Program-made: the position numbers and the translations under genes
The notes under the pieces: model-generated
Told to the model about the DNA's origin: nothing
Database searches by the model: none
What the model saw: only the letters and a program-made list of their open reading frames with translations
Source: Planctomicrobium piriforme
GTDB lineage: Bacteria; Planctomycetota; Planctomycetia; Pirellulales; UBA1268
DNA length: 64,000 bases
Reading direction: 5' to 3'
NCBI GenBank assembly: GCA_945869735.1
Contig: CAMBPQ010000002.1
Coordinates: 23,276-87,275, forward strand
Part shown: in pieces, positions 2,348 to 62,512 of the stretch
How positions within the stretch are numbered: position 1 is the first letter of the stretch
How the letters are laid out: each line of letters begins with the position of its first letter

Positions 2348-2507
2348 TAGATCGCATTCGACTTCCGTGGAACGCCGGCTCGGGGGCGGCAAAAGTCTCG
2401 TCGCCGGGGCGCGGATACGCCCCAGGCTCCTCGAGCGTTCGCCGACCCCCGTGCCTCCCTCCTCCAAGCTGCCATCTCGCCGCTCCACCAAAGGCAGATG
2501 CGCTCGA
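2348..2507 (+). mobile_element. MITE-like structured repeat, module A copy 1 (160 bp)
   Basis: Ends TAGATCGCATT...GATGCGCTCGA; core CGCCGGCTCGGGGGCGGCAAAAGTCTCGTCGCCGGGGCG...CTCCTCGAGCGTTCGCCGACCCCC recurs at six other intergenic sites. Confidence 0.8.
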
Positions 2508-15169: not shown

Positions 15170-15329
15170 TAGAGCGGATCTGCCTTCGGTGGAGCGGCAC
15201 GATGGCGGCGTCAAGGACGTAGACGAGGGGGTCGGCGACCGCTCGAGGAGCCTTGGGCGTATCCTCGCCCCGGCGACGAGAATTTTGCCGCCCCCGAACC
15301 GGCGATACACCACAGTCGAATGCGCTTGA
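15170..15329 (-). mobile_element. Module A copy 4 (160 bp), between map and the alpha-operon promoter
   Basis: Minus strand TCAAGCGCATTCG...GGCAGATCCGCTCTA; near-identical core to copy 1. Confidence 0.8.
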
Positions 15330-23732: not shown

Positions 23733-24366
23733 CGCCAGTCTCCTCGTACATGCCTTGGTTGACCCACACTTGTATCCCGATGTTGCCCTGCGCCGTGGGA
23801 GCCTCGCAGAACCCGTAGTCTATCTTCGCCCGGAGCGTGGAGAGCGGCATTGAGCCGGCAATCGCCTTCTCACACCGCGACATCTCGGCACCGCCAAGTC
23901 GTCCAGCAAGCTGGATCTTCACGCCCTTGGCGCCCGCGTCCATCGTCGTGTCGAGAGCACGCTTGAGCGTGCGTCGGAAAGCCGCACGCTTCGAGAGTTG
24001 GTCGGCGATGTCCTCCGCGATGAGCTGCGCCTGAATCTCGGGACGGCTGACCTCTTCGACCTTGAGGTTCACGCGGCGTCCGAGCAACTCCTGGAGTTCG
24101 TCCTGCAGGCGATCCACCTCTTGGCCCTTGCGGCCGATGATCACACCCGGACGCGCCGAAAAGAGGATCACCTTGACCTCGTCGCGCGTCCGCTCGATCT
24201 CCACCTTGGGGATGGCAGCCGCACGGTACTTGGTCTTGAGGAACTTCCGCACGCGGACGTCCTCGAGCAGGAGAGCCTTGAACTCCTTCTTCGTCGCGTA
24301 CCAGCGGCTCTTCCACGGTTCCGTGATACCGGTGCGGAAGCCGACGGGGTGGACTTTTTGACCCAT
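23671..24366 (-). CDS. rpsC: 30S ribosomal protein S3
   Basis: MGQKVHPVGFR, RPGVIIGRKG, GRLGGAEM, PLSTLRAKIDY. Confidence 0.98.
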   Translation of the reverse strand: MGQKVHPVGFRTGITEPWKSRWYATKKEFKALLLEDVRVRKFLKTKYRAAAIPKVEIERTRDEVKVILFSARPGVIIGRKGQEVDRLQDELQELLGRRVNLKVEEVSRPEIQAQLIAEDIADQLSKRAAFRRTLKRALDTTMDAGAKGVKIQLAGRLGGAEMSRCEKAIAGSMPLSTLRAKIDYGFCEAPTAQGNIGIQVWVNQGMYEETGDGADAQEGQAPKKPKRSYKR

Positions 24367-28549: not shown

Positions 28550-28687
28550 CACACGGGGTTTTTCGCCGTACTTTACGGGAACTCGCCCCCTGAAATGCCC
28601 GCGACGCCCACCACCCCATTCCGTTCCGCACCACGCACGCGATTGCCACCCGTTTTCCCATCGCTCGCGCTCCGGGCTTGCTGAGAA

Positions 28688-28720
28688 CAGGAAGCCCCCA
28701 TCGCGAGCGCGGGGAATCCG
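28688..28720 (+). repeat. Isolated REP-like unit downstream of fusA
   Basis: CAGGAAGCCCCCATCGCGAGCGCGGGGAATCC matches units at 38731, 38961 and 62307. Confidence 0.65.
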
Positions 28721-28744
28721 GCCCGCCACCCCACCAGCCGCCTC

Positions 28745-37369: not shown

Positions 37370-37651
37370 ATGCTGCAAAAGAATCCACTCCAGCCGCCGC
37401 TGCCCACGAGATTGCCCGCCTGGGCTGCAGAGGCACCGTCTCAGCCGAGCCGCACTTCCCCATTCGTCTCGGCGGAGGACTTCGACGGCACGGGAATCCT
37501 GGCGGGCATGGATCCCTGTGAGTCGTTGTACTGGTGGATGCCGGAACTCTACGGCCCTGACCCTGCCCGCCGCTGCGACGCAGACGCTGCCGCCGCAATC
37601 GCGATTCAGGCCACCCGCCGGACACCCTCCCGCACAACTGCCGCGGCCTGA
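37370..37651 (+). CDS. Possible small hypothetical protein
   Basis: ATG 37370; protein-like segment FDGTGILAGMDPCESLYWWMPELYG; fills an otherwise empty ~480-bp gap; 3' end overlaps parA. Confidence 0.35.
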   Translation: MLQKNPLQPPLPTRLPAWAAEAPSQPSRTSPFVSAEDFDGTGILAGMDPCESLYWWMPELYGPDPARRCDADAAAAIAIQATRRTPSRTTAAA

Positions 37652-38466
37652 TCAACTTCCGCCGCCAGTGCGGCGTAGTCTTCCGCCCCGTGAGACTCGG
37701 GGGCGTAGTCGAAGATCGATTGCCCGAAACTCGGCGCCTCGGCCAGGCGGATGTTGCGGCGGATTTTGGTGGCGAACAGTTTTCCGCAGCCCCAGGCCGG
37801 GTGAGCACCACTTCCCGCCGCGAAGAATGCATCGACGTCCCTGCCGATCTCGCCGGCCAAGCGGGTCGCCGCCTCGTGCATGCAGAGCACGACTCCGAGC
37901 AGCCGGAGCCTGGGATTCACTCGCTCCGACACGAGTTCGATTGTTTCCAGCAGCTTGCTCAGGCCGTGCAGGGCAAGAAAATGCGGCTGGAGCGGCAGGA
38001 GCACCTCGCCCACCGCCGCCATGGCGTTGAGTGAGAGGAGCCCGAGTGAGGGCGGACAGTCGACGATGACATAGTCGAACGCCGGGCCAGCCAGACCGGC
38101 CCCAGCCGCGCCGGCCTGAAATCGTGGGTCGGCTGCCATGCGACTTCGCAGGATCGATTCGCGGCCCGACTTCCCCGCGAGCGCCAGTTCCGCGGCCGAG
38201 AGGTCAATGTGAGCCGGCACCACCGAGAGCGTGTCGCTCACGGAAACGCAGGCTGCGGCGAGCGGCTGATCGGCCGTGAGCACATCGAAGACGGTCGGCC
38301 CATGGGCTCCCGATGTCACGCCCACGTGCAGCGTCGCGTGCGCCTGCGGATCGAGGTCGATCAGACAGACGTGCCTGCCGGCCCGTGACAGCGCGACCGC
38401 GAGGTTCACCGATGTGGTGGTCTTGCCGACTCCACCCTTTTGGTTGGCCACGGCGATCGACCGCAT
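37606..38466 (-). CDS. parA: ParA/Soj family ATPase (no adjacent ParB)
   Basis: NQKGGVGKTTT, IDLDPQAHAT, DCPPSLG, IRRNIRLAEAPSFG; ATG at 38466. Confidence 0.92.
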   Translation of the reverse strand: MRSIAVANQKGGVGKTTTSVNLAVALSRAGRHVCLIDLDPQAHATLHVGVTSGAHGPTVFDVLTADQPLAAACVSVSDTLSVVPAHIDLSAAELALAGKSGRESILRSRMAADPRFQAGAAGAGLAGPAFDYVIVDCPPSLGLLSLNAMAAVGEVLLPLQPHFLALHGLSKLLETIELVSERVNPRLRLLGVVLCMHEAATRLAGEIGRDVDAFFAAGSGAHPAWGCGKLFATKIRRNIRLAEAPSFGQSIFDYAPESHGAEDYAALAAEVDQAAAVVREGVRRVA

Positions 38467-38600: not shown

Positions 38601-39036
38601 GAGAGCGCATTCGACTTACGTGGATCGCCGGCTCGGGGGCGACAAAAGTCGCTGCTGCGCGGTCCTGCGGATTGTGGCTGGGGCGAGGATACGCCCCAGG
38701 CTCCTCGAGCGTTCGCCGACCCCCTCACCTCCCGTCAGGAAGTCCCAAGCGCAAGCGCGGGGAATCCGGGAAGCATCGATTTGATACCGGATTGGTTCAC
38801 CGGCGGTGACATGCTCGCCGCCGGAGGATTTTGCTACAGGATGCTCGGGTGGCCGACTGGGGAATATCTCGTGAGTCGCAAAGATTCCCCGGCGTCTGCG
38901 CGTGCCCCCGACCGGCTCCTCACGATCAAGAATCGGTTCGATCATCCGTGCGGCTTGCCTCCCGTCAGGAAGCCCCAAGCACAACCGCGGGGAATGCGGG
39001 TAGCACCCCGCCCCGCTCCACAGCTGATGCGATCCA
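38601..39036 (+). mobile_element. Composite element: module A copy 5 interrupted by a REP-flanked module B
   Basis: A left part 38601-38732; REP 38731-38765; B core ~38775-38935; REP 38961-38995; A-like right end CCGCTCCAC...GATGCGATCCA to 39036. Confidence 0.72.
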
Positions 39037-39039
39037 GCA

Positions 39040-39582
39040 TCAGGGCAGTTGGTGCCTCGTGGCCTCGATCCAGGTCCGCAGCCCCTTGTGAAGCCGCCCC
39101 AAGGCAACGCGGCCGGGCCGGCCCGCCACCGTCAGCCAGCCCTCGGCATCGAGGTCGATCGCCACCAGCGTTGTCGGCCGCTGGCTGTCCGCAGTGTCGA
39201 AAAAAGCCAGCGCGTGGTCCCAGGCATCGGCCGGCCGACGATTTCCGTCTGGTGTCGGCCACGTAAAGTTGGCGTCCTCCACCAGCCCGCGGCGCAGGTG
39301 CACCAACCCCGGCGCCCGCGACACATCCCGCCGGTCGACGGCAACAAGGCGGCCCGTCACCGGATCGACCGCAAGCTGCCAGAGTTCCACCCGCGGCGCC
39401 CCTTGGATACTGCGGGCGGCTTCAGCACCATAGAAGCCCAGGCACTGCCGCGTCTGATTCCATTGAAACCACACGGCGAATGCGGCCAGCGCGACGGCGA
39501 GCGTGAGGAGGCCGATCACAAGGGTAGTCCCCGGGCCACTCTTGTCGGCAGCTGCGGGCGGGCGGGAGGCGGCGGTCATCAC
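39040..39582 (-). CDS. Hypothetical membrane-anchored protein
   Basis: One N-terminal TM (LVIGLLTLAVALAAFAVWFQW) followed by a soluble domain. Confidence 0.7.
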   Translation of the reverse strand: MMTAASRPPAAADKSGPGTTLVIGLLTLAVALAAFAVWFQWNQTRQCLGFYGAEAARSIQGAPRVELWQLAVDPVTGRLVAVDRRDVSRAPGLVHLRRGLVEDANFTWPTPDGNRRPADAWDHALAFFDTADSQRPTTLVAIDLDAEGWLTVAGRPGRVALGRLHKGLRTWIEATRHQLP

Positions 39583-53273: not shown

Positions 53274-53276
<3 letters not shown>

Positions 53277-53507
53277 AGCACCGGTGCACCGTGGGACTCC
53301 GGGTCGCAGCTGAAACGGTGCCGGATTGGTTCGCCGGGGGTGGCATGCTCGGCTCCTCACGATCGGGAGGTTTCAGCATCTGGAGGATGCTGCCCGGCAG
53401 CCAAGTGACACCTCGGCTGTCGCTTCGGCTGCCTCAGCCGGCAACGGCCACGAGGGCGTTGCAGGCGTGAAGTCAGCATCCCGGCTTCTGCGCGTGCCAC
53501 CCCCGGG
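53274..53507 (+). mobile_element. Rearranged module B copy with an A-type left end at the sulfatase TAG stop
   Basis: TAGAGCA, 9 nt, CGTGG; GTGCCGGATTGGTTCGCCGGGGGTGGCATGC; CCCGGCTTCTGCGCGTGCCACCCCCGG. Confidence 0.7.
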
Positions 53508-54230
53508 TCAGCCCTCGCCCAGATAGGCGTCGCGGACGCGGCGGTCGGCAGCGAGCTCGGTGCCTGTGCCCGAGAGCGTGATCCGTCCCGTCTCGAGCAC
53601 GTAGCCGCGGGCCGCGAGTTTGAGAGCGGCGCGGGCGTTCTGTTCCACGAGCATCACGGCGATGCCTCGCTCCGTGAGCGACGCGATCACCTCGAAGACC
53701 TTCGCGACGATCAAAGGTGCCAGGCCGAGTGACGGCTCGTCGAGCAGGAGCAGCCTCGGCCGTCCGACGAGGGCCCGGCTAATGGCCAGCATCTGCTGCT
53801 CCCCGCCTGAGAGCGTGCCACCGGGTTGCTCCAGCCGCTCGCCCAGCACCGGAAACAGCCCGCAGGCCTCATCGATGTCGGTGCGGAGCCGGCCGCGGTC
53901 GGTCTGCGTGAACCCGCCCAACTCAAGGTTTTCCCGAACGGTGAGCCGGGGAAAGATCCGGCGGCCCTCCGGCGCATGGCCGATTCCCAGCCGCATGATC
54001 TGATCCGGTTTGAGGCCGCCGAGCGGGCCGCCAGCAAACCGAATGCTCCCAGCGCGGGTCGGGACCACGCCTGAGATGGCCATCAGGAGCGTCGTCTTGC
54101 CGGCGCCGTTAGCGCCAATGAGCGCCACCAACTCGCCATCGTCGACGTCGAGCGACACCCGGTCAACGGCCCGGATGGGGCCGTATCCCGCCTCGAGATC
54201 ACGGATTTCCAACAGCGGCATCGTGGTCAC
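53508..54230 (-). CDS. livF: LIV-family ABC transporter ATP-binding subunit
   Basis: GANGAGKTT, PEGRRIF, LSGGEQQML, LDEPSLGLAP. Confidence 0.93.
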   Translation of the reverse strand: MTTMPLLEIRDLEAGYGPIRAVDRVSLDVDDGELVALIGANGAGKTTLLMAISGVVPTRAGSIRFAGGPLGGLKPDQIMRLGIGHAPEGRRIFPRLTVRENLELGGFTQTDRGRLRTDIDEACGLFPVLGERLEQPGGTLSGGEQQMLAISRALVGRPRLLLLDEPSLGLAPLIVAKVFEVIASLTERGIAVMLVEQNARAALKLAARGYVLETGRITLSGTGTELAADRRVRDAYLGEG

Positions 54231-62071: not shown

Positions 62072-62148
62072 CAAGGCACCCAAAAAGTCTGGTCCATCCC
62101 ACTCCTGTTCGGCACGATGGGGGCTTGAGTGGTGGGTCGGAGATTCTT

Positions 62149-62512
62149 GATCGTGAGGAGCCGGGTGTGGCACGCGCAGAAGCCGGGAATGTTTGCGACT
62201 CACGAGCTATGCCCCGTCGGCCAGGCGAGCATCCCGTAGCAAAATCCCCAGCGCCGAGCATGCCACACCCGGCGAACCAATCCGGCACCGTATCAATGCC
62301 GCCCGTATTCCCCGCGCTCGCGCTTGGGGCTTCCCGACGAGAGGCGGCGTCTCCGGATCGTGAGGAGCCGGGTGTGGCACGCGCAGAAGCCGGGAATGTT
62401 TGCGACTCACGAGCAATGCCCCGTCGGCCAGGCGAGCGTCCCGTAGCAAAATCCCCGGCGCCGAGCATGCCACACCCGGCGAACCAATCCGGCACCGCAT
62501 CAATGCCGCCCG
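62149..62512 (-). repeat. Two tandem module B units (207-bp period) separated by a REP-like unit
   Basis: GATCGTGAGGAGCCGGG at 62149 and 62356; near-identical cores; REP at 62307-62334. Confidence 0.9.

Follow-up and report, generated by a model that had tools for sequence, protein, structure and literature searches.

The window, the whole 64,000-nucleotide stretch that was analysed (C2:23276-87275), contains at 38601-39036 a non-coding sequence of 436 bases located in the spacer between parA and orf180. The initial annotation described it as a REP-flanked module B placed inside a module A, and offered two explanations: either one element serves as the landing site of the other, or both are modules of a single mosaic family. 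The question raised by the locus is which of these relations holds and how the arrangement arose. The host assembly is a 95%-complete MAG of 3.17 Mb in 128 contigs, with 65% G+C.

Anatomy of the composite and census of its modules

Repeat searches and module-HMM profile searches divide the sequence between 38603 and 39034 into A-left, which ends in CCTCCC, a REP, the B core (BC), a linker, a second REP, and a degraded A-right (Table 1). The initial annotation had proposed the same layout at the same coordinates, with A breaking at CCTCCC, and the HMM matches (E=6e-28 for A and 6e-44 for B) bear it out. A-left of the window has its left boundary at 38602/3, starts with the TIR GAGCGCATTCG, ends with ACCTCCC, and belongs to subfamily 'ins21', which carries a 21-nt insert. 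The REP1 region is a direct repeat, 48 nt long and 90% identical, of positions 38958-39005. REP2 has the rare variant AAGCACAACCGC, which weakens its hairpin. The linker that follows BC in the window is also found 3' of BC in the ('BC','BC') and ('BC','-') REP context classes and in a remnant of an IS630-family element on contig C26.

The right TIR of the window copy is decayed to GATGCGATC. Alignment of the region 39005-39036 to a 'REP flank + A-right' consensus gives a score of 35, which is reached by none of 5000 shuffles and by 1 of 5000 random genomic windows. The A-like right end extending to 39036 is thus degraded but supported, as had been proposed. The score of the 27-nt A-right part on its own is reached by 29 of 5000 shuffles and 30 of 5000 random windows. 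Better-preserved equivalents of A-right are located at C58, C30, and C26 of the same genome; the C58 and C30 copies end in ...CCGC(C/T)..GCTCCACCAAAGGCA(G/A)ATGCG(C/T)TC, which is a clear A-right.

The left end of the element is 134 nt from the start codon of parA, and its right flank is 3 nt from the stop codon (TGA) of orf180. The orf180 gene is here ~10 codons shorter than in the congeners G015 (L134) and G014 (L147), and alignment with these two genomes shows that the homologue of their orf180 C-terminal coding tail sits beyond the element. The 3' end of orf180, within its former last ~10 codons, thus appears to be the place where the composite was inserted. A search of the whole window against Rfam gave no match at gathering score; the lone sub-threshold match, to a nematode snoRNA model whose gathering score is 60, has 23 bits and is spurious. 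A tRNA scan of the window found none.

Table 1 Features of the composite, its flanking genes, and other module copies in the window.
Feature	Position	Strand	Description	Basis
GA dinucleotide	38601..38602	+	Site where the left TA target duplication should be; decayed	End consensus of 66 full A copies
A-left module	38603..38733	+	Part of the IS630-derived MITE	AL model positions 2-110, nhmmer E=6.4e-28
REP1	38734..38775	+	CGTC-tagged imperfect hairpin repeat, GTCAGGAAGTCCCAAGCGCAAGCGCGGGGAATCC...	REP model E=2.4e-9
B core (BC)	38778..38931	+	Imperfect palindrome, 154 nt	BC model positions 2-153, E=5.6e-44
Linker	38932..38963	+	ATCGGTTCGATCATCCGTGCGGCTT; last 7 nt GCCTCCC (conserved REP 5' flank)	Same linker after BC elsewhere
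REP2	38964..39004	+		REP model positions 1-41, E=2e-9
REP 3' flank and degraded A-right	39005..39034	+	Right TIR (CCCCGCCCCGCTCCAC-AGCTGATGCGATC)	Local alignment score 35
CA dinucleotide	39035..39036	+	Site where the right TA duplication should be; decayed	Same 66-copy end consensus
parA	37606..38466	-	Syntenic in congeners	Pfam AAA_31, CbiA, ParA
orf180	39040..39582	-	Conserved hypothetical, 180 aa	tblastn identity 50-62% in 13 congeners
Tandem B array without A ends	62145..62501	-	BC-REP-BC, period 207; example of B on its own, without A	
BC copy split by module 'C'	53312..53509	+	BC matched in two parts, with about 58 nt of hits in between	BC model positions 2-68 and 75-140
Simple A copy used as reference	2348..2505	+	A-left and canonical right arm, no REP	

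Two other loci of the window had been read as mixtures of A and B parts. The A-type left end at 53274 is no better than 30% of shuffles, and its TAG is the stop codon of a sulfatase gene. The A-like 3' fragment at 62085-62140 does not hold against the A consensus, where 1093 of 5000 shuffles do as well, and has marginal support from the copy at 15170 only. The match to that copy is 15 nt long, and 6 of 5000 shuffles and 20 of 5000 random windows do as well. The module that splits the BC copy at 53312 is a fourth repeat of about 110 nt (module 'C', 53363-53470), with the sequence CAGCATCTGGAGGATGCTG...GGCAGCCAAG..GACACCT..GGCTGTCGCTTCGGCTGCC...; the insert recurs at C14 about 23900-24100 in the same genome and at locus L119 of G015.

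The census was carried out by iterated nhmmer searches over all contigs with module HMMs. It comprises about 248 copies of A-left (110-112 nt), about 135 of the canonical A right arm (45-48 nt), about 498 of REP (about 42 nt), and about 105 non-overlapping copies of the B core (154 nt). A-left, REP, and BC total roughly 850 copies, and the modules occupy ~2% of the genome. The REP consensus is ...GCCTCC-CGTC-AGGAAGCCCC..., and the CGTC tag is present in every context class. The REP hairpin is composed of a stem of CCCC/GGGG and GCG/CGC, an AA bulge, a CGAG loop, and the tail GGGTGGCA; two REP subtypes are present in the genome. The BC model also matches the opposite strand of many other BC copies, which is a palindrome signature.

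The modules are arranged in clusters with a recurrent grammar. Plain A, composed of A-left and a right arm, occupies at least 85 loci. REPs form 64 singletons, 57 inverted doublets, and 23 alternating triplets, and there are further clusters of REP-BC-REP units and tandem arrays. A typical inverted doublet, with REP' and REP 3 nt apart and no A or BC nearby, is located at 28645-28721 of the window. At ~40 loci A-left runs directly into a REP. Composites have the forms A-left-REP-A-right (13 loci), A-left-REP-BC-(linker)-REP-(A-right) (about 8 loci), and A-left-REP-24 nt-full A. Of the 105 BC copies, 74 have an adjoining same-strand REP at 5', 69 have one at 3', and 47 have both; tandem periods are 207-235 nt. 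The composite C67:8033-8616 has the order A-left-REP-BC-REP-24 nt-A-left-right arm, and its two A-left copies are 97% identical, far closer than typical pairs, which suggests a local duplication or gene conversion.

Co-occurrence and junction positions across the genome, proposed as a check in the initial annotation, link the modules. A same-strand REP follows 39 of the 205 A-left copies whose 3' end is intact, compared with 0.08 expected, and in 38 of these cases the offset is identical. None of the 205 copies is followed by a REP on the opposite strand.

Module A and its cognate insertion sequence

IS630 elements target CTAG and duplicate TA. The end consensus of 66 full A copies is C-TA-GAGCGCAT ... 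ATGCGCTC-TA-G. The left TIR reads GAGCGCAT(T/C)CG, and the right TIR ...(C)AGATGCGCTC, the reverse complement of which is GAGCGCATCTG. TA flanks are present in about 58-65% of the 66 copies, and most of the others have GA or TC. Among the flanks of the full copies (for example 2346-2349 and 2506-2509), GA or TC stands in place of TA in about 35-40%, so that CTAG becomes CGAG or CTCG.

Intact or near-intact IS copies of about 1.0 kb with CTAG flanks are present in the congeners G007, G012, and G002. The TIR of the congener IS is GAGCGCGTC, and the ORF at G007:C61 encodes an intact DDE_3 transposase of 308 aa. The right end of the IS, ...CCGCTACACATAAACCGGACGCGCTC-TA or ...GGCTACCGCTACACATAAACCGGACGCGCTC-TA, takes in the transposase stop codon and is homologous to A-right. 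Because of this homology, the end consensus, and the CTAG site with its TA, we classify A as a MITE of an IS630-family element that targets CTAG and duplicates TA; the link to IS630 suggested in the initial annotation was correct. The IS-derived part of A is limited to its outermost parts, and the long core of A-left does not originate from the IS.

In the genome under study, DDE_3 transposase is present as fragments only, the best of which is frameshifted (C26:1009-1823, L001). This remnant is composed of the left TIR GAGCGCGTTTGAG, a Shine-Dalgarno sequence and ORF start (MKPDSKEFRG...), frameshifted DDE_3 pieces, BC, the linker, a REP, and A-right, and the N-terminus of its transposase is 87-96% identical to that of the congener IS. 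The IS is represented by intact copies in congeners and is decayed in the genome under study. The family is probably immobile now, since the assembly is devoid of an intact transposase. C26:1009-1823 is the sole recognisable IS630-family copy in the genome; it is internally deleted, has its 3' part replaced by BC-linker-REP before the right TIR, and directly abuts an inverted A-left copy.

Relation of the REP-BC cassette to module A

The locus probably represents a copy of a composite, non-autonomous transposable element, in which IS630-MITE ends surround a REP-BC-linker-REP cassette that stands in place of about 19 nt. The REP-like hairpin family from which the cassette is built is genus-specific. 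In composites, the 19 nt or so of the plain element (TCCTCCAAGGTGCCATCTC) are replaced by REP, which makes no clean interruption of A, and no target duplication was found around the cassette in A. At its right end, the C26 IS remnant matches the window segment spanning BC, the linker, REP2, and A-right (38776-39036) with 91-94% identity, and the REP of the remnant has the same rare variant as REP2. This identity and the common variant indicate that the BC-linker-REP2-A-right block was copied as a unit.

The motif GCCTCCC, with at most one mismatch, is located 5' of 166 of the 457 REPs that do not adjoin A and matches 0 of 2000 random 7-mers. CCGCTCC is present within 28 nt 3' of 29% of the REPs not adjoining A, compared with 9% of random 28-nt windows. 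The motifs of both junctions are thus part of the REP unit, and GCCTCCC is not an A-specific target. REP-bearing A-left copies are found with similar frequency in all three structurally distinct subfamilies, varA (11 of 75), varB (8 of 53), and ins21 (9 of 27). They do not cluster in the A-left tree (29 changes compared with 30.8±1.5 when shuffled) or in a nearest-neighbour test (7 compared with 5.9 expected), both of which have low power due to the star-like phylogeny. The three-subfamily result is independent of these two tests and is the only robust one of these arguments for modularity. The parts appear to behave as shuffling modules of a mosaic, and not as the product of one clean nested insertion.

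The distribution of the modules among relatives is consistent with such shuffling. A and/or B are present in all 15 congeners. Searches of 10 other families of the order gave no convincing match to A or B, with the one marginal match of a B query in G016 (E=6.6e-4), and A and B are confined to one genus. The exact REP core is also present in three named MAG species that were independently assembled in other studies, and these matches put the genome under study in Pirellulales (Planctomycetota). Congener G009 has many A-left copies, 94-97% identical to the consensus of the genome under study, that are joined to a different right arm, which indicates that the core is better conserved across species than the mobile ends. 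The G009 right arm (L105-L115), CGCCTACCCGCCCTCGCT...GATGCGCTCTA, is entirely different and closer to the right end of the IS. In G015, many BC copies are flanked by another REP hairpin, AAGCCGACCGGCCGTGAGGCCGCGGG (L117-L120); the pattern of hairpin and flank suggests that the stem was exchanged while the junction to BC was retained. L120 is the sole locus with the AAGCCGACCGGCCGTGAGGCCGCGGG hairpin 5' of BC, and the 3' flank GGGGAATGCGG..GCAT is kept there. G006 contains BIME-like alternating arrays of two REP subtypes. The modules are uncoupled between species. The explanation of the initial annotation that A and B are modules of a single mosaic family fits these results: the junction is found in three subfamilies, the motifs are present on free REPs, and congeners have different combinations.

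The orthologous site was compared in the 13 congeners that keep the parA-orf180-aroB synteny. The parA-orf180 spacer is about 95-145 nt long without a module match in all 13 of them, and 573 nt long here. The comparison thus confirmed the absence of the whole composite from 13 of 13 syntenic congeners, and it yielded no A-only allele among them. We hypothesize that the composite reached the site as a unit, moved in trans by an IS630-type transposase acting on the A termini. Transposition as a unit at this site is inferred, because the flanks are GA and CA, not TA and TA, and the right TIR is degraded. Recombination or template switching may have created the composites and shuffled their parts, using short motifs common to A and REP (left, GCCTCCC; right, GGTGsCA...CGCC..GCTCCAC), and B arrays may grow through unequal exchange between direct REPs. 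Since the congeners are distant, with ParA identity of at most 85%, a sequential insertion in this lineage, A first and the cassette later, could also have produced the site.

Another explanation, which we regard as unlikely, is true nesting, in which an independently mobile REP or REP-BC-REP repeatedly landed in A after CCTCCC, and each composite is a separate insertion. The identical junction at 38-39 loci in three A-left subfamilies is what such insertions would produce, more than 400 REPs and most B arrays are located outside A, and Y1 (HUH) transposase genes are present in at least 8 congeners. However, GCCTCCC is also found 5' of REPs without A nearby and so travels with REP, about 19 nt of A are replaced and not interrupted, without a duplication, and the 91-94% identity of the cassette and A-right to the IS remnant argues for descent as a block. 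The claim that one element is the landing site of the other is thus not supported in the form given. No RAYT, which the initial annotation had suggested, was found in the genome under study by PF01797 or by tblastn with congener Y1 proteins, and no IS110 gene, which was searched for by analogy with dRS3- and REP-targeting IS110 elements. IS110 genes are present in congeners as well, but the congener Y1 loci examined (G003 and G001) have no REP-model matches, and the congener IS110 loci examined have no adjoining REP.

We also considered that the REP hairpins and their flanks (GCCTCCC ... GGTGGCA..GCTCCAC) are crossover sites of a putative site-specific recombinase that builds REP-BC arrays and swaps MITE arms. 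This is a long shot, and no recombinase or active transposase was found in this 95%-complete MAG. If true, the locus would belong to a system in which non-coding modules are exchanged as cassettes, and it would be the first mosaic of NIME type to be seen outside Neisseria.

It is similarly improbable that REP and/or BC, and the A core, have been domesticated as structured signals in RNA or DNA (for instance terminators, sites of protein binding, or stabilisers of mRNA 3' ends), and that the mosaic results from selection for function. Gene context was obtained with an iterated codon-usage caller, an in-house and crude tool that gives a coding fraction of 80%; an earlier caller based on position-specific composition, with 71% coding, was dropped. 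A-left is located 69 times between convergent and 11 times between divergent genes, in a genome with as many spacers of the one type as of the other (320 and 322). A-left, REP, and BC are all enriched in convergent and depleted in divergent spacers, and 28 of about 498 REP copies were called genic. The position of the modules mainly downstream of genes would agree with a function, but they have no orientation bias relative to flanking genes (33 compared with 39 for A-left, 97 with 112 for REP, and 21 with 22 for BC). The distribution is that of selfish DNA. Conservation of the modules across the whole genus, in which ParA is at most 85% identical to that of the window, and the variation of the REP stem between species with its flanks kept, would also agree with a function.

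BC can be drawn as a hairpin of 55 pairs with 89% of cells paired, and the mismatches of its consensus are all G·T on the + strand (5-6, with no A·C), which is a small hint of a function. Since RNAalifold on the HMM alignment gave a poor consensus, the covariation of BC was evaluated on the MFE fold of the consensus sequence, with slid partners and shuffles as controls. Compensatory changes, in 87 cells of 20 pairs compared with 27-89 cells for slid partners, are not in excess. Neither the copies in the window nor the consensus fold better than dinucleotide shuffles, whether treated as DNA or as RNA (z from +0.2 to -1.9); the REP consensus hairpin is imperfect, with z in the same range. The absence of an Rfam match and the stem-breaking variant in REP2 at the locus further argue against domestication.

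An artefact of assembly or binning, with repeats mis-joined in a MAG of 128 contigs, many of which end inside B or REP (21 of 105 BC copies are at contig edges), is extremely improbable, as the same junctions are present on dozens of contigs and inside long contigs with conserved flanking genes, the REP is found in three MAG species independently assembled in other studies, and the modules are present in 15 congeners. A CRISPR-like reading of REP-BC-REP was rejected, since the 'spacer' BC is itself a conserved repeat.

Resemblance to known repeat mosaics

RUP of Streptococcus pneumoniae is a MITE derived from IS630/Tc1-mariner and linked to IS630-Spn1. Like RUP and other IS630 MITEs, A is small and non-coding, has short TIRs and a TA duplication in CTAG, matches an IS that is intact in congeners in its TIRs and right sub-terminal sequence, and is located at gene ends in high copy number. 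Unlike RUP-type MITEs, A belongs to an unrelated sequence family, its left arm holds a long conserved core that is not from the IS, and its right arm occurs in several interchangeable versions, one of which has the REP/palindrome cassette.

BOX elements of Streptococcus pneumoniae have the structure boxA-boxB(n)-boxC. The composite has a similar organization, A-left-(REP-BC)n-REP-A-right, with fixed end modules around a variable number of internal tandem modules. It has no sequence relation to BOX, its internal modules are also free, in hundreds of copies and arrays outside the ends, and its ends are identifiable IS630 termini.

In the NIMEs of Neisseria, dRS3 hairpins flank RS elements, and in 2007 these arrays were said to be unseen outside Neisseria (PMC1797815). 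The REP-BC arrays resemble NIMEs in that repeat units ~150 nt long, in direct arrays, are flanked by a short GC-rich hairpin that has CGTC as its 5' tag and GGGAAT in its 3' half, in the mixing of arrays with other repeat types, and in that no dedicated transposase is evident. They differ from NIMEs in that the dRS3 consensus ATTCCC-N8-GGGAAT is not matched beyond a GGGGAAT half, there is essentially one core family (BC) with module C in place of more than 100 RS families, the arrays are short (1-3 units), and the host is a planctomycete. Neisseria dRS3 is classed as CGTC-1 in the superfamily of CGTC-tagged REPs, which was reported without a dedicated transposase (PMC3733652, Di Nocera et al. 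2013). The unpaired CGTC tag of the superfamily is present in the REP described here, which departs from the rules for CGTC-1 to CGTC-4 (an 8-9-bp stem from A/T pairs, a 4-5-nt loop, and a CCA tail; PMC3733652). By its sequence the REP resembles the superfamily and is no member of CGTC-1 to CGTC-4 as defined.

The ~500 extragenic hairpins, which occur as singletons, inverted doublets, and alternating triplets, include two subtypes, and are located downstream of genes, are also similar to the BIME/REP (PU) sequences of Enterobacteria and to the REPIN/RAYT system of Pseudomonas (PMC3116915). In contrast to these, the tag is CGTC and not GTAG, the genome has no RAYT, and RAYT-like genes of congeners are not flanked by REPs.

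With an architecture that parallels the BOX, BIME, and NIME mosaics, the designation of the locus as an undescribed system was overstated. The composite adds a new family to a well-known class of selfish DNA, the mosaics, and is not a new biological system. The locus illustrates, in an uncultured freshwater genus of Pirellulales, how a REP/palindrome cassette can take the place of a MITE arm; fixed short motifs appear to be the sites where the A-left, REP, and BC families recombine. With this locus, mosaics of NIME- and BOX-like architecture and CGTC-tagged REPs without a dedicated transposase are extended to Planctomycetota. Copies of the modules explain many contig breaks, and we advise masking them in annotation and comparative work on the clade.
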